This document shows positions 55,994 to 62,857 of a stretch of DNA of 64,000 nucleotides, piece after piece. The DNA is taken from positions 63,567 to 127,566 of the forward strand of contig JAJHRD010000003.1 of the NCBI GenBank assembly GCA_020833005.1. The letters run 5' to 3'. Below the pieces are notes generated by a model. The model was not told the origin of the DNA, searched no databases, and saw nothing but the letters and a program-made list of their open reading frames with translations. This DNA is from Thermoproteota archaeon (GTDB lineage Archaea; Thermoproteota; Methanomethylicia; Culexarchaeales; Culexarchaeaceae). Every line of letters begins with the position of its first letter. Position 1 is the first letter of the stretch. A program made the position numbers and the translations under genes.

Positions 55994-56506
55994 TTGAGTG
56001 AAGAAGATAAGGAGAGGGAGAAGCTAAAAAGCTTATTAAAGGAGAGGATAGATCAACTTAGCAAGGAAGTGGAAATACTTAAGATGTGCCTAGAAATATT
56101 GAGTGAAAAGCCCACAGCAGCCCAGCAGAAGACAAGCGAAACAAAAGTGGAGATGAAAGTTGAAAAACCAGTACAGAAGGCAAAAACCCCTGAAAGGAAG
56201 CTCTTAACAAGTATAAGTGAGGGGGGAGAAAACATTGCAAACATATATGTGGAGGAGGACAAGATAATAGTGGTTCCCGGGAAGAACGTGAAGGTTGATG
56301 TGAACTCAAGAGACTTCAAAGACTTCTTCGTAAAGAAGGTTTTATTCGGTTTGAAGAAGGAGAAGCCTTCAATATCATATGAAGTTAAGGATGTAAATGG
56401 AACTTTAAAGGAAGTTATAATAAAGAATGTTACTGAAGAGAGGGATGTAAAGAGGATTGAGGGAGCGGTGAAATGGACTTTCAGTAGATTTATATCTAAG
56501 CCTTAA
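55994..56506 (+). CDS. Hypothetical protein with N-terminal coiled coil
   Basis: TTG start. N-terminal heptad-like region; no motif recognised. Confidence 0.3.
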   Translation: MSEEDKEREKLKSLLKERIDQLSKEVEILKMCLEILSEKPTAAQQKTSETKVEMKVEKPVQKAKTPERKLLTSISEGGENIANIYVEEDKIIVVPGKNVKVDVNSRDFKDFFVKKVLFGLKKEKPSISYEVKDVNGTLKEVIIKNVTEERDVKRIEGAVKWTFSRFISKP

Positions 56507-57056
56507 ACCAGTTGAAGGAGATGTAGGTAACCTCATTGGTGGCTGGATTTATCATTGCAATAATGAAATTCTTCTTAACACTATGGGAAAGCCTCCCAGC
56601 ACGAACAATATCCACTGGATCAAGCTTCTCATTCATTGGAAGAACCTCAACTAAGAATGGTGCATGATCAATTCCAGGTCCATGAACATAAACTGCAAAA
56701 TCAGCTCCAAACTTCATACCAGACCTAACCACATACCCCTTACTCCTCAAATCACAATAAACGGTGTAGAGTTCATTAAACAACTTATGTTTACTTTTAA
56801 CAATGGATAAAACTTCACTTCTACTAAGAACCTTATCACCATCAACTATTGATATAACCCCCTTATCGAGGAGGTATAATGCCTCTATTGGCGATAATAC
56901 TAGGGGGGAATTGAAGTTTAAATCCTTAGGTTTCCTAACCTTAATTGGCATACCATAAAATCCATTGGCATAAAGCCACCTACTGGCTTCAAAATCCCAA
57001 ACCACAAAGTTTCCTCCAACCCATTCAACCACTATTGGCTTGGAGGGGGTTGCCAT
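56496..57056 (-). CDS. endA: tRNA-splicing endonuclease catalytic subunit
   Basis: Catalytic region GMKFGADFAVYVHGPGIDHAPFLVEV. 186 aa. Confidence 0.85.
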   Translation of the reverse strand: MATPSKPIVVEWVGGNFVVWDFEASRWLYANGFYGMPIKVRKPKDLNFNSPLVLSPIEALYLLDKGVISIVDGDKVLSRSEVLSIVKSKHKLFNELYTVYCDLRSKGYVVRSGMKFGADFAVYVHGPGIDHAPFLVEVLPMNEKLDPVDIVRAGRLSHSVKKNFIIAMINPATNEVTYISFNWFKA

Positions 57057-57125: not shown

Positions 57126-58196
57126 ATGCTGAGGAGGAGCATAATTAATAGAAGCATGCTAATGGTTATTGCATCGTACTGTGTGGGATTACTAATTGTA
57201 CTGGCATTGATAAACTATGCTGGATTCAGCAATGTCATCGGGAATATTGTGAACAAAATATCACTTCAACTATTCATAGTAACATTCCTACTCGACTTAA
57301 CTGGGCTAATATTATATGCATCAATATGGTACACGCTAATATTGGGAAGTGGGGCCAAAATAAGCTTTAGAACCGCAGTAACATCAACTTGGGCAAGCAT
57401 ATTCATAGTATACCTAAGCCCAACGGGAGTTGCAATGGAGGTATTAAAGCTTATCCTAACCAATAAAGATGGAAAAGTGCCAATAGGTAGGGGGATGGCT
57501 GCACTAACCATGCAAAGAATAATATACTCCATAAGCTTCGCTATAATAGCAACATCAAGCTACCTAATAGTACAATACAGATACATGATAATAGGGGAGA
57601 TGATTGGGAGAATAATTACTGCTTTACTAGCAATATCCATAGGAACAGTAATAGCCCTACTGATACTTGGAGAGAAGGCTGAATGGATAGAGAAAATTAT
57701 AAGCAAAATATATGAAAGGTATAGAGCCAACATAGAAAAGATGCTTTCAAAATACAATCCCACAGACATCATGAACTCAGTATCATCAACCCTAAACGAT
57801 TTCAAAGAATCATTCACAAAGTTGAAGTTGAATAAATTGCATCTATTAATAGCCTTCACACTTACAACAATCAATTGGATGACCAACGTAGCAATATTAT
57901 ATGTGGTGCTACTCTCACTTGGATATAGAGTGTCAATATGGATTTTAATGGTAATAATGGTTGCATGTGAATTCGTTCAAATGACCCCAATAGCTATACC
58001 TGGAATGCTTGGAATAATAGAAACTGTGATGACAATGGCGCTACAAACATTCGGTATACCATTGGATGTTGCAGCCACAGCTTCAGTATTGACGAGATTA
58101 GCAACATTCTGGTTCGATCTACCAGTAACTGCAACGGCAGCATCCTACTATGGTGTAAAATACCTATTGAAGGGGATGTCTAGGGAAGCGAATTAA
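57126..58196 (+). CDS. UPF0104/flippase-like (lysyl-PG synthase TM-region-like) integral membrane protein
   Basis: Eight predicted TM helices with the N-terminal pattern typical of UPF0104 (PF03706). Confidence 0.4.
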   Translation: MLRRSIINRSMLMVIASYCVGLLIVLALINYAGFSNVIGNIVNKISLQLFIVTFLLDLTGLILYASIWYTLILGSGAKISFRTAVTSTWASIFIVYLSPTGVAMEVLKLILTNKDGKVPIGRGMAALTMQRIIYSISFAIIATSSYLIVQYRYMIIGEMIGRIITALLAISIGTVIALLILGEKAEWIEKIISKIYERYRANIEKMLSKYNPTDIMNSVSSTLNDFKESFTKLKLNKLHLLIAFTLTTINWMTNVAILYVVLLSLGYRVSIWILMVIMVACEFVQMTPIAIPGMLGIIETVMTMALQTFGIPLDVAATASVLTRLATFWFDLPVTATAASYYGVKYLLKGMSREAN

Positions 58197-59803
58197 GCTT
58201 CCAATACAACACCACTTAAAGCCCTATCCGAAACAACCTTAACAACTCTAACTTTAACCACTTTGCCAATAAATTTTGATGCAAAATTTTGATTCTCAAT
58301 GAATATTACTGGGCCATGCATGAATGGATAAGCCACAATCCCCCTACCACCTGGAAATGCTTCAACAATAAATGCATCCAAAACCAATCCAACCCACTTA
58401 CCCTTCAACTTCGAATTCAATTCATTAGCCTTACTGGCAATTATCCTACTAGCCTCATCACTGAAGCTTGGTGGAGCTTTAGGGAAATCTGCGAATGCTG
58501 ACATGGGTAGTGGCGTGAAGCGATACAACGTTATCTTCTCAGCACCAGCCTTAACGGCCTCATCCATAACCCTTGAAGTTTCAATTGCCACATTAACATC
58601 TTGTCCGGGTAAGCCGTGAATGAAATATGCATATGGAATTAAGCCATACCTCCTAAGAATTTTAATGGCCTTCAAAGCTTGATGTGGGGTTGAGGGTCTT
58701 CCAAGAGCTATGGAGTGAGATTCACTACCAGTTTCAACGCCAATGCTAACTGGGGTTCCATGAAGATATTTACCTAAAACCCTAGCCACAGATTCATCTA
58801 CGAGGGATGGCTTAACATTCTCTATTGATATGAAAAGCTTTAACCCAAACTCCTTCTCTAAACCCTTAACCCTATCTAGGAGCTTCTCAATGGCATCAAT
58901 GTTTGGTGGAGGATTGGAGGGGTCTGTGAGGGGTTCAGGCTCCACAAGTAAATCCCTACCATAATCTAGGAAGTCTGAAGCGCCTAAAATGAACCTTCTA
59001 CAACCAGCTTCAATTAAACCCTTAATCTCATCCACTATGGATTCAATGGATCTACTCCTAGATGGGCCGAATAGGCTTGGGACTGAGCAATATCCACAGC
59101 CTGGAGGTATGTTTAGGGGGCAGTAATATCTATTGCTTAGGGGGCCAGTGTAGCATTTACCACAATCATTACATTTACGTCCATCTGGAAGCTGAATCTT
59201 TGCTCGTTTAAAGTTGCTGCAACCTCTAACTGCTTCCACATATATCCTACATGCATAGTATCCCCAATAATTCCTAATCACCTTAACGGATGGTTTGAAG
59301 GAGTTTAATTCAATTCTAGACATGAATGGTCTTAGGGGGTTGACAACAATCTCTGAGCCAACCCTATAAGCTAAACCACTAATATCTTTAAGGAAATCCA
59401 TGTCACCACTAGATTTGAGTTTATTGAGGAATTCAGATAGCGATTTCTCAGCTTCACCTATAAATGCAATGTCAAATTCAGCTTTAATTAAAGCTTCATA
59501 GGGATCTGAGGCTATTGGACCACCAATGACAGTTAAACCGTCACTAACCCTACTCCAAAGCCTCCTAATCCTACGAACAGTGGGTATATCCACACTCATT
59601 GCGCTTACCATTAAAATATCAAACCCATTTAGTAATGATGGATTTCTGAGGACACTATAGTATGGCTTCAAATCGAATTCGAATCCAAGCTTCTCCAAAA
59701 CTCCAGCCACAGTTCTAGGGCCACATCCAATGACATCTATGGTTGCATGTCTACCCTCAGAGCCTGAGCCTACAGCATCAACAATGATTATCTTCATAGC
59801 CAA
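58193..59803 (-). CDS. Radical SAM-like protein with N-terminal B12-binding-like (flavodoxin-fold) domain, Cys-rich insertion in the cluster motif and C-terminal TRAM-like domain
   Basis: MKIIIVDAVGSGSEG N-terminal Rossmann-like domain. VRGCSNF...[35-aa insertion with CNDCGKC...C]...CGYCSVP. C-terminal KVVKVRVVKVV TRAM-like beta barrel. Confidence 0.45.
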   Translation of the reverse strand: MAMKIIIVDAVGSGSEGRHATIDVIGCGPRTVAGVLEKLGFEFDLKPYYSVLRNPSLLNGFDILMVSAMSVDIPTVRRIRRLWSRVSDGLTVIGGPIASDPYEALIKAEFDIAFIGEAEKSLSEFLNKLKSSGDMDFLKDISGLAYRVGSEIVVNPLRPFMSRIELNSFKPSVKVIRNYWGYYACRIYVEAVRGCSNFKRAKIQLPDGRKCNDCGKCYTGPLSNRYYCPLNIPPGCGYCSVPSLFGPSRSRSIESIVDEIKGLIEAGCRRFILGASDFLDYGRDLLVEPEPLTDPSNPPPNIDAIEKLLDRVKGLEKEFGLKLFISIENVKPSLVDESVARVLGKYLHGTPVSIGVETGSESHSIALGRPSTPHQALKAIKILRRYGLIPYAYFIHGLPGQDVNVAIETSRVMDEAVKAGAEKITLYRFTPLPMSAFADFPKAPPSFSDEASRIIASKANELNSKLKGKWVGLVLDAFIVEAFPGGRGIVAYPFMHGPVIFIENQNFASKFIGKVVKVRVVKVVSDRALSGVVLEA

Positions 59804-59811
59804 TTACACGA

Positions 59812-60078
59812 TCACTTCAATGGGCGTCTAATGGTAGCTATGGAATTGTCGGCAATACCAAGAGAAGCCATTTGAGCTGGATTAGCCCAAACTTCCCTCT
59901 CAGGAACCTTATCATCAGCTACAACCGTTAACACACATTTACGCTTACCAGCAATAACAACTTCAATTTTATCTGTAATTTGAAGCTGCTTCATCATGGA
60001 ACTATTCATCTTAGCCATCCCTTCATCGACACCTTCAATACGCCTTATCCGCAACCTCTTCTCAGGAACCTTAGACAT
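59812..60078 (-). CDS. Small CDC48-N/VAT-N-like (double-psi barrel) domain protein
   Basis: LRIRRIEGVDEGMAKMNSSMMKQLQITDKIEVVIAGKRKCVLTVVADD resembles the VAT-N substrate-binding fold. Confidence 0.3.
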   Translation of the reverse strand: MSKVPEKRLRIRRIEGVDEGMAKMNSSMMKQLQITDKIEVVIAGKRKCVLTVVADDKVPEREVWANPAQMASLGIADNSIATIRRPLK

Positions 60079-60130: not shown

Positions 60131-61861
60131 TTACTTGAATGGTGTTCCAAGATCGTCAAATGAAAGCTTATAATTGAAGTATTTATGAAGTTTGAGTGGC
60201 AAATCATCTATGGGGGATCTAACTTGCCTCCATGAATCCCTATCCCTCAAAGTAACAGTATTATCATTGAGAGACTGATAATCAATGGTTATGGCTATTG
60301 GAACCCCTATTTCATCAGCCCTAGCATACCTCCTACCAATAGATCCGGAATCATCATAATCAACAGTGAAACCTTCATCCAAAAGCATACGATAAACCTT
60401 CAATGCAAATTCTGGGAGGCCATCCTTAGATACCAATGGTAAAACAATCAACTGTATTGGAGCAATATCCCTTGGGAGGGATAAAACCGTTCTACCACCC
60501 TTCTCACCATAAGCATACTCAAGAGTTGCATAAACTATTCTATCAGCTCCAAAGGATGGTTCAACAACATGTGGTAAGATATGTTTACCCTTAACCTCCA
60601 CATCTTCAACGAGGACATCGAAATCATCCTTAAATAATTTTACGCCACCAACCTCAATGAATCCTTCACGTTTAAATGCCACTTCCAATATCGATGGATC
60701 TATGGATTTAAGTATGCCATCAGCCTTATCACCAAGCTTCCCCCTTATAACATCGATCTTCGGAACATACTTAGTTACACGTTCAACCCTAGGACTATCA
60801 AATTGCTTATAAACCCTCAAATCCACACCACTAAACACCATATGTCTACCAAGATCGTAATCTGTCCTATAAGCATAACCAGCAATTTCAACATACCCCC
60901 ACCTCTCCAACTTAACAACTTGATCAAAAGTTTGAGCAGAATAGTGAGCTCTCTCCTGTGGAGGTTTATCTATGAAGAATTGGGAGTTGAAGGGTATACC
61001 GAGGGATTCAGCAAACCTCCTACCCAAAACCATGAAGTAAGCTTGCCACTCATTGGATATCATACCCTTATCAACAGCTTCACCAGCTGAGATAGTTATG
61101 GGCTCAAAAACCTTTGAAGTAGCTTGGGATTGTGGAACTATCCTCAAAAGCTCATTTCTACATTCATTGAAGAAGGGGCATTTCGGATCTTCAGGGTCAA
61201 AGAAGAATTCAACCTCCATTATGGTGAACTCCCTAAGCCTTATAGGCCCCTGCCTAGGGGAAATTTCATTCCTCAAAACACGTCCAATTTGAGCTATACC
61301 TATTGGTAGTTTCCCCCTACAAGCCTCATATACACGTTTAAATGCTAGAAACATTCCCTGAGCAGCTTCAGGTCTACAGTAACCAACATCCTCACTATAT
61401 GGTCCAATGGTGGTTTTGAATAGTAAACTGAAATTTTTAACATCGCTCAATCTCCCACCACACTCTGGACACCTTAACCCCCTCTCAGAAATTATATTAT
61501 TCAATTCATCTCTAGATAGAGATTCAACGCCACCAATTCCAGTCAACTGCTCCACAAGGTGATCAGCCCTATACTTCCTACCACAAGATAAACACTCCAC
61601 GAGGTAGTCTGTGAAGTGTTCAACATGCCCCGAAGCCTCCAAAACTCTACTTGGAAGTACGATTGGAGTTTCAATTTCAAAAATTAAGCCAGCATGCCTA
61701 TGAATGAAAAACTGCCTCCACTTATTCTCAATCCTATGCTTCATCAATGTTCCAAGGGGGCCGAAGTCTATGAATCCCCTCACACCACCATAAATCTCCA
61801 TGGAAGGCCAGAGGAATCCTCTCCTCCTAGAAAACTCCATTAAACGCTCATACCTATCCAT
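60131..61861 (-). CDS. glyS: Glycyl-tRNA synthetase (archaeal/eukaryotic alpha2 type); start at internal Met MDRYERL (ORF open to 61948)
   Basis: N-terminus MDRYERLMEFSRRRGFLWPSMEIYGG is typical of GlyRS. Class II motifs and anticodon-binding domain present. Confidence 0.9.
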   Translation of the reverse strand: MDRYERLMEFSRRRGFLWPSMEIYGGVRGFIDFGPLGTLMKHRIENKWRQFFIHRHAGLIFEIETPIVLPSRVLEASGHVEHFTDYLVECLSCGRKYRADHLVEQLTGIGGVESLSRDELNNIISERGLRCPECGGRLSDVKNFSLLFKTTIGPYSEDVGYCRPEAAQGMFLAFKRVYEACRGKLPIGIAQIGRVLRNEISPRQGPIRLREFTIMEVEFFFDPEDPKCPFFNECRNELLRIVPQSQATSKVFEPITISAGEAVDKGMISNEWQAYFMVLGRRFAESLGIPFNSQFFIDKPPQERAHYSAQTFDQVVKLERWGYVEIAGYAYRTDYDLGRHMVFSGVDLRVYKQFDSPRVERVTKYVPKIDVIRGKLGDKADGILKSIDPSILEVAFKREGFIEVGGVKLFKDDFDVLVEDVEVKGKHILPHVVEPSFGADRIVYATLEYAYGEKGGRTVLSLPRDIAPIQLIVLPLVSKDGLPEFALKVYRMLLDEGFTVDYDDSGSIGRRYARADEIGVPIAITIDYQSLNDNTVTLRDRDSWRQVRSPIDDLPLKLHKYFNYKLSFDDLGTPFK

Positions 61862-61969
61862 AGCAATCCCAACAAAAGTAAAAAGATGGGCAAATACATT
61901 AAAATATTTCTCACAACTGACGGTAAACAATTTTAAATCATACAACATTATAATTCAATAGTGTCATAA

Positions 61970-62857
61970 TTGGAGTGGTTGAAGTACCACTTAAGCGATG
62001 AGGGGAAATACTTCAATGGGAAACAATGCGAAATAAGTGAAGCGGAATTCATATTATTCGGTGCACCAATAGACTCCACATCAACGTATAGAACTGGATC
62101 TAGGGAAGCCCCTCCAATGATAAGACTTGCATCACTAAACGTGGAGACATACAGCTTCAGAAATGAAATGGATGCATTGGATTTAAAGATTCACGATGCA
62201 GGTGATATACCCCAAACACCAAACATAAATGAAGCTTTAAACAGAATCTCAAAAATTGTAAGTGAAATTGTGAAGATGGGGAAGAAGCCAATAATGATAG
62301 GAGGCGAACACACAGTAACCTATGGAGCTATAAAAGCATTGAAGAAGCCAATCATAATATTCGATGCACACATGGACTTAAGAGATGAATATCCATATGG
62401 TGTAAAGATGAGTCACGCCACAGTTTCAAGGAGGATAACTGATGAAATTGGAGCGGAAAATGTATTCATAATTGGCGTGAGAGCCACATGTAAAGATGAA
62501 ATTGAATATGCAAGAAGGGTTGGATTAAAGTATAAAACGTCAATGGAGGTAATGGAAAACTCAGCGAAAGATTTAATGAAAGATATTAAGTTGAATGGAA
62601 ATGATGTATGGATATCAATAGACATGGATGTACTAGACCCGTCAATAGCCCCAGGAGTTGGAAACCCGGAACCTGAAGGGATATCCGTAACAAAACTCCT
62701 AGACATACTACAATGGATAGCTATGAATAAGAAGGTTATTGGATTCGATCTAGTTGAAGTATCCCCACCATACGATAATGGGGTAACATCAATAACAGCT
62801 GCAAAAATAATACTTGAATTGGCATGCATGATAAGTAAGTGGAAAACTAGAGTTTAA
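61970..62857 (+). CDS. speB: Agmatinase (arginase/ureohydrolase family)
   Basis: Mn-binding motifs GGEHTVTYG, IFDAHMDLRD and SIDMDVLDP. Confidence 0.8.
   Translation: MEWLKYHLSDEGKYFNGKQCEISEAEFILFGAPIDSTSTYRTGSREAPPMIRLASLNVETYSFRNEMDALDLKIHDAGDIPQTPNINEALNRISKIVSEIVKMGKKPIMIGGEHTVTYGAIKALKKPIIIFDAHMDLRDEYPYGVKMSHATVSRRITDEIGAENVFIIGVRATCKDEIEYARRVGLKYKTSMEVMENSAKDLMKDIKLNGNDVWISIDMDVLDPSIAPGVGNPEPEGISVTKLLDILQWIAMNKKVIGFDLVEVSPPYDNGVTSITAAKIILELACMISKWKTRV

Follow-up and report, generated by a model that had tools for sequence, protein, structure and literature searches.

Split radical SAM motif enclosing a putative second metal site in an archaeal enzyme family with B12-binding-type and TRAM-like domains

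Radical SAM enzymes are usually recognized, and the ligands of their cluster assigned, by the motif CX3CX2C. It has the canonical form RGCxxxCxFC in MgmA/QCMT, the MCR glutamine C-methyltransferase (PDB 9CCB, TIGR04014), and in the TIGR04013 family (MJ_1487), proteins of 380–460 aa with neither a Cys-rich insert nor a TRAM domain. The 11-residue insert of QueE is not known to carry metal ligands. It results in the motif CX14CX2C, where a loop splits the first and second Cys while the cluster is bound canonically (PMC4389238), and this extended cluster loop has been connected with flavodoxin interaction (PMC4389238; PMC11142719, citing Grell 2019). In the glycyl-radical-enzyme activases BssD, HpdA, and IbsAE, extra [4Fe-4S] Cys motifs adjoin the radical SAM motif. 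There, two full CX2CX2CX3C motifs follow CX3CX2C and form a ferredoxin domain. Basic activity of these activases in vitro does not require the ferredoxin-like domains (PMC10239695). The methylthiotransferases (MTTases) MiaB, MtaB, and RimO (TIGR00089) consist of an N-terminal alpha/beta domain, a radical SAM core, and a TRAM domain, and hold an auxiliary cluster by three Cys in the N-terminal UPF0004 domain (PMC10702137).

The window, that is, the whole 64,000-nucleotide stretch of a Culexarchaeaceae contig that was analyzed, contains a radical SAM gene on the minus strand (58193..59803), listed as an ORF of 536 aa starting from TTG at 59803. Translation probably begins instead at the ATG at 59797, giving a protein of 534 aa (MKIIIVD...), because homologues begin likewise (MKxxIVD); the upstream sequence also points to this codon. 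The string AVRGCSNF-[KRAKIQLPDGRKCNDCGKCYTGPLSNRYYCPLNIPPG]-CGYCSVP, quoted for this ORF, was confirmed in its translation. Seven of the 10 Cys of the protein fall within residues 195–239 (positions 195, 211, 214, 217, 228, 236, and 239). An orthologue in Ca. Culexarchaeum nevadense is 92% identical. Searches found 684 homologues and 320 species with a relative (80 of the 320 are listed), and all seven Cys are invariant in an alignment of 23 sequences with 45%–74% identity; therefore, the ORF and its Cys pattern are neither due to chance nor an assembly artefact. The family is small, comprising 66 clusters at 50% identity (E ≤ 1e-30), and among the matches listed, the named members are without exception archaeal (Bathyarchaeia, Culexarchaeia/Methanomethylicia, Desulfurococcales, Asgard, and Aenigmarchaeota). 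The query reached no NCBIfam cut-off, scoring 132 against 251 for TIGR04013, 79 against 360 for TIGR04014, 52 against 251 bits for TIGR00089, and 44 against 357 for the RimO model. MCR is not expected in Desulfurococcales and Asgard archaea, where the family occurs, so its members are not MCR maturases. The protein is a genuine radical SAM enzyme of an uncharacterized archaeal subfamily.

The protein has three domains: its radical SAM barrel, of the MgmA/MTTase lineage, is preceded by a Rossmann domain of the B12-binding type and followed by a TRAM-like barrel. All three had been proposed in the original prediction, which these analyses confirmed. The partial TIM-barrel core (residues ~186–445; 58469..59248, minus strand) was recognized both by its fold and by the Pfam Radical_SAM model PF04055 (E 3.9e-16, above the cut-off). 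Judging from the alignments, the SAM-binding motifs after β2 and β4 are present as an MTTase-type variant with no literal GGE: the stretch ILGASDFLDYG pairs with ILVAQDTTSYG of RimO, IGVETGS pairs with YGIESGS of MgmA, and D280, Y281, G355, E357, and G359 are conserved in the 23-sequence alignment. The N-terminal domain (residues ~3–160; 59324..59797, minus strand) has the invariant residues D9, T21, D23, G26, R30, S67, M69, D72, G94-G95, and E117/E119 (a GEGE-like motif), and the same alignment contains no conserved Cys before residue 195. The query matched Pfam B12-binding (PF02310) with an E-value of 2e-6 and 28.1 bits, just below the 32.1 cut-off, while 22 of the 23 homologues matched this model (best E 4e-12); structural matches were TsrM, TokK, CysS, OxsB, and MgmA. 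No UPF0004 match was found in Pfam for the query or its homologues. The C-terminal barrel (residues ~471–536; 58196..58393, minus strand), with a net charge of +5, matched Pfam TRAM at E 0.009 in the query and superposes on the TRAM domains of RimO and MiaB. The protein is soluble and basic (mean pI 8.8).

The MTTases thus share with this enzyme the three-domain layout, radical SAM and TRAM parts that align by sequence and structure, and presumably a second metal site, but the query has a B12-binding-like N-terminus and extra Cys enclosed by the radical SAM motif. The family joins the N-terminus of cobalamin methylases to the radical SAM and TRAM parts of tRNA/ribosomal-protein methylthiotransferases. 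The N-terminal domain may provide a cobalamin-bound methyl group in class B style. Since AprD4 has the same domain type and yet is not known to bind B12, cobalamin binding cannot be read from the sequence, and cobalamin-dependent methylation is a possible but rather doubtful chemistry for this enzyme.

In place of the canonical CX3CX2C, the protein has C195-x40-C236-x2-C239. C195 (59219..59221, minus strand) is located two residues past the extended β1 and pairs with the first Cys of MgmA RGCPGNCTFC, which aligns as RGC, the insert, and CGYC. C236-G-Y-C239 (59087..59098, minus strand) pairs with the CxxC of MgmA and RimO; P234-G235-C236-G237-(Y/F)-C239 is invariant in the 23-sequence alignment, and the usual aromatic residue precedes the last Cys. 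Paralogues of 380–460 aa keep RGCxxxCxFC without the insertion, and the Fervidicoccus fontis orthologue, which retains C195, contains only three Cys in the entire protein, arranged as GCSN-x22-CAYC. Because of the MgmA alignment, the paralogue motif, and this three-Cys orthologue, C195, C236, and C239 are very probably the ligands of the radical SAM cluster, and the predicted distance of about 40 residues between the first motif Cys and the CxxC holds. Another assignment, in which C228 would be placed on the radical SAM cluster (CX7CX2C) and C195 would join C211, C214, and C217 by analogy with two-cluster ferredoxins, was rejected because orthologues with Cys-free inserts retain C195 and the CxxC, and F. 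fontis has just those three.

According to the alignments, the loop between the first and second motif Cys, normally three residues long, is expanded to 40 residues (196–235; 59099..59218, minus strand). This insertion is missing in the RGCxxxCxFC paralogues and splits the HMMER alignments to the TIGR04013 and TIGR04014 models in two. It was found in all family members, with a length of 9–47 residues, and has a pLDDT of 85–93 in the structure model. Within it lies the module C211-x2-C214-x2-C217-x10-C228(-P229) (59120..59173, minus strand), a putative second [4Fe-4S] site with the consensus C-I-x-C-G-x-C, i.e., three Cys at x2 and x2, plus a distal Cys-Pro. QueE differs in its 11-residue insert, as against 37 residues beyond the canonical spacer with four invariant Cys in the query, and the activases differ from the single compact four-Cys loop nested here within the motif. 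Among the closest homologues, the spacings x2, x2, x10, x7, and x2 are constant, and the first spacer alone varies, from about 9 to 15 residues. A strict Cys pattern matched 103 of the 120 closest clusters; 16 of the 17 clusters missed by it were inspected (P0114 was left out), and all 16 kept the seven Cys with small variations. Variant members have CX3CX2C-x7-11-C in the insert.

The four additional Cys expected in the insert are thus present, and the alignment of orthologues showed their conservation in nearly the whole family and their loss in one nested clade. In a rough NJ tree, the four-Cys insert was found in basal and most other branches, while Cys-free short spacers were nested within. 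Therefore, the Cys were probably lost secondarily in one clade, and the module is likely an accessory that the core chemistry can do without, although a change of function could also be the cause of the loss. As far as the alignments can tell, the four loop Cys are a separable and conserved module.

On the best reading of these data, the enzyme modifies a macromolecule linked to translation and has a second cluster built in. The genes around it include glyS for glycyl-tRNA synthetase (60131..61948, minus strand; Pfam tRNA-synt_2b and HGTP_anticodon) and, as the second conserved neighbour, endA for tRNA-splicing endonuclease (56496..57056, minus strand; Pfam tRNA_int_endo and the N-terminal domain). 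A 170-aa ORF at 55994-56506 had no informative match in Pfam, NCBIfam, or PDB. Of 77 loci, 25 have glyS no more than about 1.1 kb away from the radical SAM gene, in differing orientations, and these 25 loci span Culexarchaeia/Methanomethylicia, Desulfurococcales, and Asgard archaea; endA was located at a distance of 0.7–2.4 kb in 20 loci. Together with glyS and endA, the synteny partners in several phyla were eS30, GatDE, Nop5, SUI1, and TFB. The TRAM-like barrel, the basic charge, and the synteny with translation genes across phyla point to a macromolecular, translation-linked substrate. Since the gene lies next to translation genes across Bathyarchaeia, Culexarchaeia/Methanomethylicia, Desulfurococcales, Asgard, and Aenigmarchaeota, its product probably installs a modification of the archaeal translation apparatus. 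However, synteny with housekeeping genes on both strands may be historical.

The modified molecule would most likely be tRNA or rRNA and, less likely, a translation-related protein. RNA is not established as the substrate because RimO uses its TRAM domain to bind a protein, and MgmA, structurally the nearest relative, is likewise a protein-modifying enzyme; we give RNA an even chance. A non-RNA substrate is a serious but somewhat weaker possibility: like MgmA and RimO, the enzyme could act on a protein, or it could act on a glycan carrier or membrane lipid, with the C-terminal barrel acting as a general binding module. Consistent with this, MgmA, the closest relative of solved structure, is a protein methylase (PMC11796369), the TRAM of RimO serves a protein substrate (PMC10702137), and the adjacent gene in the window encodes a flippase-like membrane protein (TIGR00374; weak HpnL match). 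In 25 Bathyarchaeia loci, where the neighbours are glycosylation-type membrane genes instead, the adjacent gene encodes a polytopic membrane protein that by eye looks like an MraY/AglH-type transferase. However, these membrane-gene neighbours are lineage-specific and located on the opposite strand, while the cross-phylum neighbours are glyS and endA. In addition, the protein is soluble and basic, and the known archaeal lipid radical SAM enzymes, Tes and Gms, are of the SPASM type, unlike this architecture.

Several specific functions were considered and rejected. The GMGT/GDGT lipid synthases (Gms and Tes) are SPASM-type enzymes with canonical motifs. A role as a t6A-to-hn6A methylase was discarded, as hn6A is thought to be derived from hydroxynorvaline via the t6A machinery and occurs also in methanogens, where the family was not seen. 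RaSEA and TYW1 gave no NCBIfam match, and Elp3 appeared only as a distant fold match.

The insert very probably binds a metal centre, and this centre is probably a [4Fe-4S] cluster. In the PDB, the insert profile matched best the CX2CX2CX11-12C loops of the histamine/trimethylamine dehydrogenase family of flavoproteins (PDB 3K30, 6DE6, and 6L6J; E 0.012–0.027), with all four Cys aligned, followed by the Fer4 motifs of TYKY and [FeFe]-hydrogenase. The dehydrogenase loop, which shares the spacing of the insert, ligates one [4Fe-4S] cluster used in electron transfer; the resemblance is at the motif level, the host folds are unrelated, and it may be convergent. The sub-threshold Pfam matches of the inserts were mostly to Fer4 models, with Fer4, Fer4_6, and Fer4_2 matching 10, 9, and 6 of 32 inserts, each below the cut-off. 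The hits of the insert to Fe-S motifs are weak and without exception sub-threshold (E 0.005–0.1; the best PDB hits, to Fe-S loops, range from E 0.012 to 0.2), and for some members zinc-finger models score comparably.

An alternative view is that the four Cys form a structural Zn knuckle or ribbon that stiffens the loop or makes a docking surface, the radical SAM cluster being the only Fe-S cluster; we consider this unlikely. Four-Cys sites in short loops frequently bind Zn, the top score of the query insert was to zf-C2H2_11 (E 0.004), as was that of 5 of the 32 inserts, several zinc-finger chains occurred among the weak PDB matches, and the module was lost without loss of the enzyme. On the other hand, the layout is not that of two CX2C knuckles but CX2CX2C with a distal Cys-Pro, an arrangement found in single-cluster ferredoxins and the trimethylamine-dehydrogenase-type [4Fe-4S] loop; the variant CX3CX2C-x7-11-C is again cluster-like. 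Because of this arrangement, the top PDB matches, and the majority of sub-threshold Pfam matches being to Fe-S motifs, the evidence favors a second cluster over a zinc ribbon, without proving it. Overall, we slightly favor a split-motif radical SAM enzyme whose separate four-Cys module most likely binds an Fe-S cluster.

In the mechanism we propose, the CX2CX2CX10CP module would bind a second [4Fe-4S] cluster. Since C228 is only seven residues from C236, this cluster would have to lie within roughly 10–15 Å of the radical SAM cluster, probably along the outer face of the cluster-binding loop, the usual docking side of the reductant. It would serve as a built-in ferredoxin-like relay supplying the electron for SAM cleavage, and the 5'-deoxyadenosyl radical would then take hydrogen from the macromolecule gripped by the basic TRAM-like domain. 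That the second centre is an electron relay and not catalytic is suggested tentatively, by analogy with the extended loop of QueE and the dispensable ferredoxin-like domains of the glycyl-radical activases. It is improbable that the cluster is instead catalytic as in the methylthiotransferases, LipA, and BioB, with its site shifted out of the N-terminal domain to the cluster loop, where it would carry or donate sulfur or anchor the substrate in a MiaB/RimO-like reaction. Against this, the N-terminal domain belongs to the B12-binding type and not UPF0004, the TIGR00089 score is 52 bits against the cut-off of 251, and the clade without the four Cys keeps all else, which is hard to square with an essential catalytic cluster. 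In addition, judging from known radical SAM structures, a loop that separates the first and second Cys is expected on the outer side, away from the SAM and substrate pocket.

The motif can thus be stretched, by sequence counts, to CX11-CX51-CX2C with a putative second metal site inside. If the site is a [4Fe-4S] cluster, it would represent a new position for an auxiliary cluster and a natural system in which to study reduction of the catalytic cluster, with the orthologues having only the three core Cys as matched controls. A literature search for CX34-41CX2C radical SAM motifs and for archaeal radical SAM proteins with B12 and TRAM domains found nothing relevant. We know of no RNA-modifying cobalamin-dependent (class B) radical SAM methylase. 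On the most far-reaching reading, which we regard as a long shot, this family would be the first radical SAM enzyme to nest an auxiliary [4Fe-4S] cluster inside CX3CX2C, as a built-in ferredoxin wired straight to the catalytic cluster, and it would also be a class B methylase of tRNA or rRNA, with conservation reaching from Thermoproteota to Asgard archaea.

Between glyS and the radical SAM gene, 8 nt upstream of the latter and probably co-transcribed with it, is an 88-aa gene (59812..60078, minus strand) for a small double-psi-barrel-like protein with the invariant motif GIADNSIATIRR. This gene was found directly upstream in 8 Culexarchaeia/Methanomethylicia/Thermoprotei loci and close by in 16 more, always with glyS. 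Its product weakly matched CDC48_N, DUF7209, a designed DPBB protein, and one segment of crenarchaeal eS6.

The radical SAM ORF (58193..59803, -) spans 536 aa from TTG 59803, from which residues are numbered here, and its translation contains the peptide AVRGCSNF...CGYCSVP quoted in the original prediction. The sequence around the start reads ...TGA tcgtgtaa TTG GCT ATG AAG ATA ATC, and since the aligned homologues begin with MKxxIVD, ATG 59797 is probably the true start, giving a product of 534 aa. Only 14 nt separate this ATG from the stop of an upstream gene for an 88-aa protein, which suggests that the two genes may be co-transcribed. Seven of the 10 Cys of the radical SAM protein lie within residues 195–239 (195, 211, 214, 217, 228, 236, and 239). 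The orthologue from Candidatus Culexarchaeum nevadense (L001) is 92% identical.

HMMER aligned the canonical RGCPGNCTFC motif of the MCR glutamine C-methyltransferase MgmA as RGC(195) ... CGYC(236–239), with the alignment breaking at an insert between C195 and C236. C195, C236, and C239 are very probably the ligands of the radical SAM cluster, since the homologue from Fervidicoccus fontis (P0148, 548 residues) has only these three Cys overall, arranged as GCSN-x22-CAYC. The first motif Cys, predicted about 40 residues away from the CxxC, was thus placed at C195 by both comparisons. The three-Cys protein also rules out C228 (CX7CX2C) as a radical SAM ligand. Interrupted motifs known so far are much shorter, namely CX5CX2C in HmdB and CX14CX2C in QueE (PMC4389238), and a literature search for CX34–41CX2C turned up no paper on radical SAM enzymes. 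When 1.84 billion representatives were searched exhaustively, scores showed a sharp break, with 66 clusters at E<=1e-30. Full-length clusters among the 66 aligned in a single stretch, down to ~250 bits; paralogues below the break (380–460 aa, RGCxxxCxFCQTP) aligned in two stretches at ~100 bits or less. All family members have an expanded loop separating the first two Cys, of 9–47 residues past the GCSN motif, and shorter Cys-free spacers were found in a small clade (P0139, P0145, P0148, P0155, and P0156) and in P0171.

The insert Cys, for which an alignment of orthologs had been proposed as a check, proved to be conserved: all 23 aligned homologues have C211, C214, C217, and C228, which are lost in nested Cys-free forms. 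Of the 120 closest clusters, 103 fit a strict pattern, and by inspection 16 of the 17 others retain all seven Cys with small variations (a count that excludes P0114). The spacing is fixed (x2, x2, x10, then x7, x2), only the first spacer being variable, and Pro nearly always directly follows C228. Distant members keep four Cys with altered spacing (CX3CX2C-x7-11-C or CX2CX3CX4C). In P0092, P0118, P0140, P0157, P0163, P0164, and P0170, the insert Cys occur as CCxxC, CX2CX3CX4C, or a second CX3CX2C-like triplet with a distal Cys, the last form resembling a duplicated radical SAM-type motif within the motif. In a rough neighbour-joining tree rooted on paralogues, the four-Cys form was basal and present in most other branches, and the Cys-free forms were nested within, indicating that the module was present in the ancestor of the family and has been lost at least twice.

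The original prediction offered a zinc ribbon or a second cluster for these four Cys. The best PDB matches of an insert-only profile were the CX2CX2CX11-12C loops of 6L6J, an Oxidored_FMN-domain protein, and of two histamine dehydrogenases, presumably members of the trimethylamine dehydrogenase family (E 0.012–0.027, all four Cys aligned). In those flavoproteins the loop ligates their single [4Fe-4S] cluster. The next matches were Fer4 motifs of complex I TYKY/NuoI and [FeFe]-hydrogenase, and sub-threshold Pfam matches of 32 inserts included Fer4 (10), Fer4_6 (9), and Fer4_2 (6). A [4Fe-4S] site is therefore the likely assignment, to which the loop and Fer4 matches lean, not decisively. Zinc is an unlikely occupant, suggested by a few zinc fingers scoring similarly in the PDB search and by sub-threshold zf-C2H2_11 matches in 5 of the 32 inserts.

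Pfam Radical_SAM matched residues 228–403 above its cut-off (E 3.9e-16) and was found in all 23 homologues. The predicted B12-binding-like N-terminus was supported by the Pfam B12-binding match in 22 of 23 homologues (best 4e-12; residues 30–125 here, E 2e-6, 28.1 bits vs a cut-off of 32.1). The TRAM likeness of the C-terminus, weak here (residues 499–523, E 0.009), recurred in 4 of 23 homologues (best 2e-4), and the MiaB/RimO model alignment (residues 236–524) reached through the C-terminal barrel. Every NCBIfam model scored below its cut-off with the radical SAM protein, the best being TIGR04013 (MJ_1487 family; 132 bits vs 251), followed by TIGR04014 (MgmA; 79 vs 360) and TIGR00089 (MiaB/RimO; 52 vs 251). 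The SAM-binding motifs of the core are of the type found in methylthiotransferases (MTTases), and the protein did not qualify as a member of the MTTases, TIGR04013, or MgmA despite resembling each. An AlphaFold2 model based on the 23-sequence alignment had pLDDT 93 and pTM 0.92 (insert at pLDDT 85–93), with further fold matches to AprD4, CysS, TsrM, TokK, and OxsB. The protein combines a radical SAM core, a nested four-Cys module, and B12-binding-type and TRAM-like flanking domains. Database names of members are generic ("radical SAM protein", "B12-binding domain-containing", "YgiQ family"), and no publication on the family came up in literature searches. We classify these proteins as a radical SAM subfamily that is so far uncharacterised and has a probable metal site in an unusual nested position, bearing on radical SAM enzymology and archaeal RNA and protein modification.

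Sequence comparison thus defines a conserved, separable four-Cys module that maps inside the cluster-binding loop. Since C228 precedes C236 by seven residues and both ends of the insert are fixed to radical SAM ligands, any metal centre in the insert would be close to the catalytic cluster, at roughly 10–15 A. In radical SAM enzymes of known structure, the stretch separating the first two Cys sits on the outer side of the cluster-binding loop, thought to be the docking side for reductants, and the insert centre would be positioned there as well. Our preferred reading, held at slightly less than even confidence, is that the module may form a built-in ferredoxin-like relay, transferring electrons and taking no part in catalysis; its loss in some lineages fits this role. 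Such a relay would parallel the ferredoxin-like domains found in glycyl-radical activases, which are dispensable (PMC10239695). For QueE, the extended loop has been associated with co-evolution with flavodoxin (Grell et al. 2019, cited in PMC11142719). That the second cluster is catalytic, as in MTTases, is unlikely, given the loss of its Cys in a nested clade and the non-MTTase N-terminal domain.

The family is basic (mean pI 8.8), with an average net charge of +5 in the TRAM-like domain. RNA, at about even chances, is the favoured substrate, followed by a translation-related protein and then a lipid or other compound. Cobalamin-dependent methylation is a more tentative guess, prompted by the N-terminal domain type and by MgmA. 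AprD4 has the same domain type, yet is not known to bind B12.

In the window, glyS (glycyl-tRNA synthetase; 60131–61948, -), an agmatinase-like arginase-family gene (61970–62857, +), and endA (tRNA-splicing endonuclease; 56496–57056, -) flank the radical SAM gene. Neighbourhoods were compared across 80 listed loci. In 25 of 77 loci (Culexarchaeia/Methanomethylicia, Desulfurococcales, and Asgard), glyS lies no more than ~1.1 kb away, in differing orientations; among the loci listed, endA is nearby in 20 and a small double-psi-barrel (DPBB)-like protein, with glyS, in 24. The block recurs rearranged in Desulfurococcales, with SUI1 and TFB. The listed Asgard loci have glyS and TFB in common, with SUI1 and the small DPBB gene present in some, but neither endA nor the agmatinase-like gene was found among them. 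The recurrence of the block indicates that synteny of these informational genes is conserved over a long range. Some other family contexts include eS30, GatDE, and Nop5, and others TFB. In the 88-aa DPBB-like protein (59812–60078, -), the C-terminus GIADNSIATIRR is invariant and an EVW motif is present; its weak matches are to CDC48_N, DUF7209, and a designed double-psi barrel. Two independent libraries also gave a match to residues ~42–105 of ribosomal protein eS6 in its long crenarchaeal form (PDB 9fhl_G, E 0.013; NF003292, E 0.0027). The commonest neighbour, found in 27 listed loci of Culexarchaeia/Methanomethylicia and Bathyarchaeia, is the family (family 1) of a 170-aa ORF (55994–56506, +) that overlaps the end of endA by 11 nt; it has a coiled-coil N-terminus and a C-terminal domain without known match, and searches of Pfam, NCBIfam, and PDB gave no informative match. 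Downstream of the radical SAM gene, a flippase-like membrane protein (57126–58196, +; LPG_synthase_TM / TIGR00374, weak HpnL match) is encoded on the opposite strand, the two genes being convergent with stop codons overlapping by 4 nt (58193–58196). In Bathyarchaeia the adjoining gene instead encodes a polytopic membrane protein that by eye looks like an MraY/AglH-type transferase.

By the taxa labelled in the records, the 80 listed loci comprise Bathyarchaeia (40), Desulfurococcales or Pyrodictiaceae (14), Asgard (8; Odin, Baldr, Jord, Freya, Hel, and a Loki-type), and Culexarchaeia/Methanomethylicota (7). The remaining 11 are other Thermoproteota, Nitrososphaeria-labelled and unclassified archaeal MAGs, and one Patescibacteria-labelled contig. 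Divergent members occur in Aenigmarchaeota, Promethearchaeota, and Fervidicoccus. The contig labelled 'Patescibacteria group bacterium' (L037, DATLAV010000204.1) carries a family member with Bathyarchaeia-type neighbours (families 1, 4, 9, 11, and 14) and is probably a mis-binned archaeal contig.
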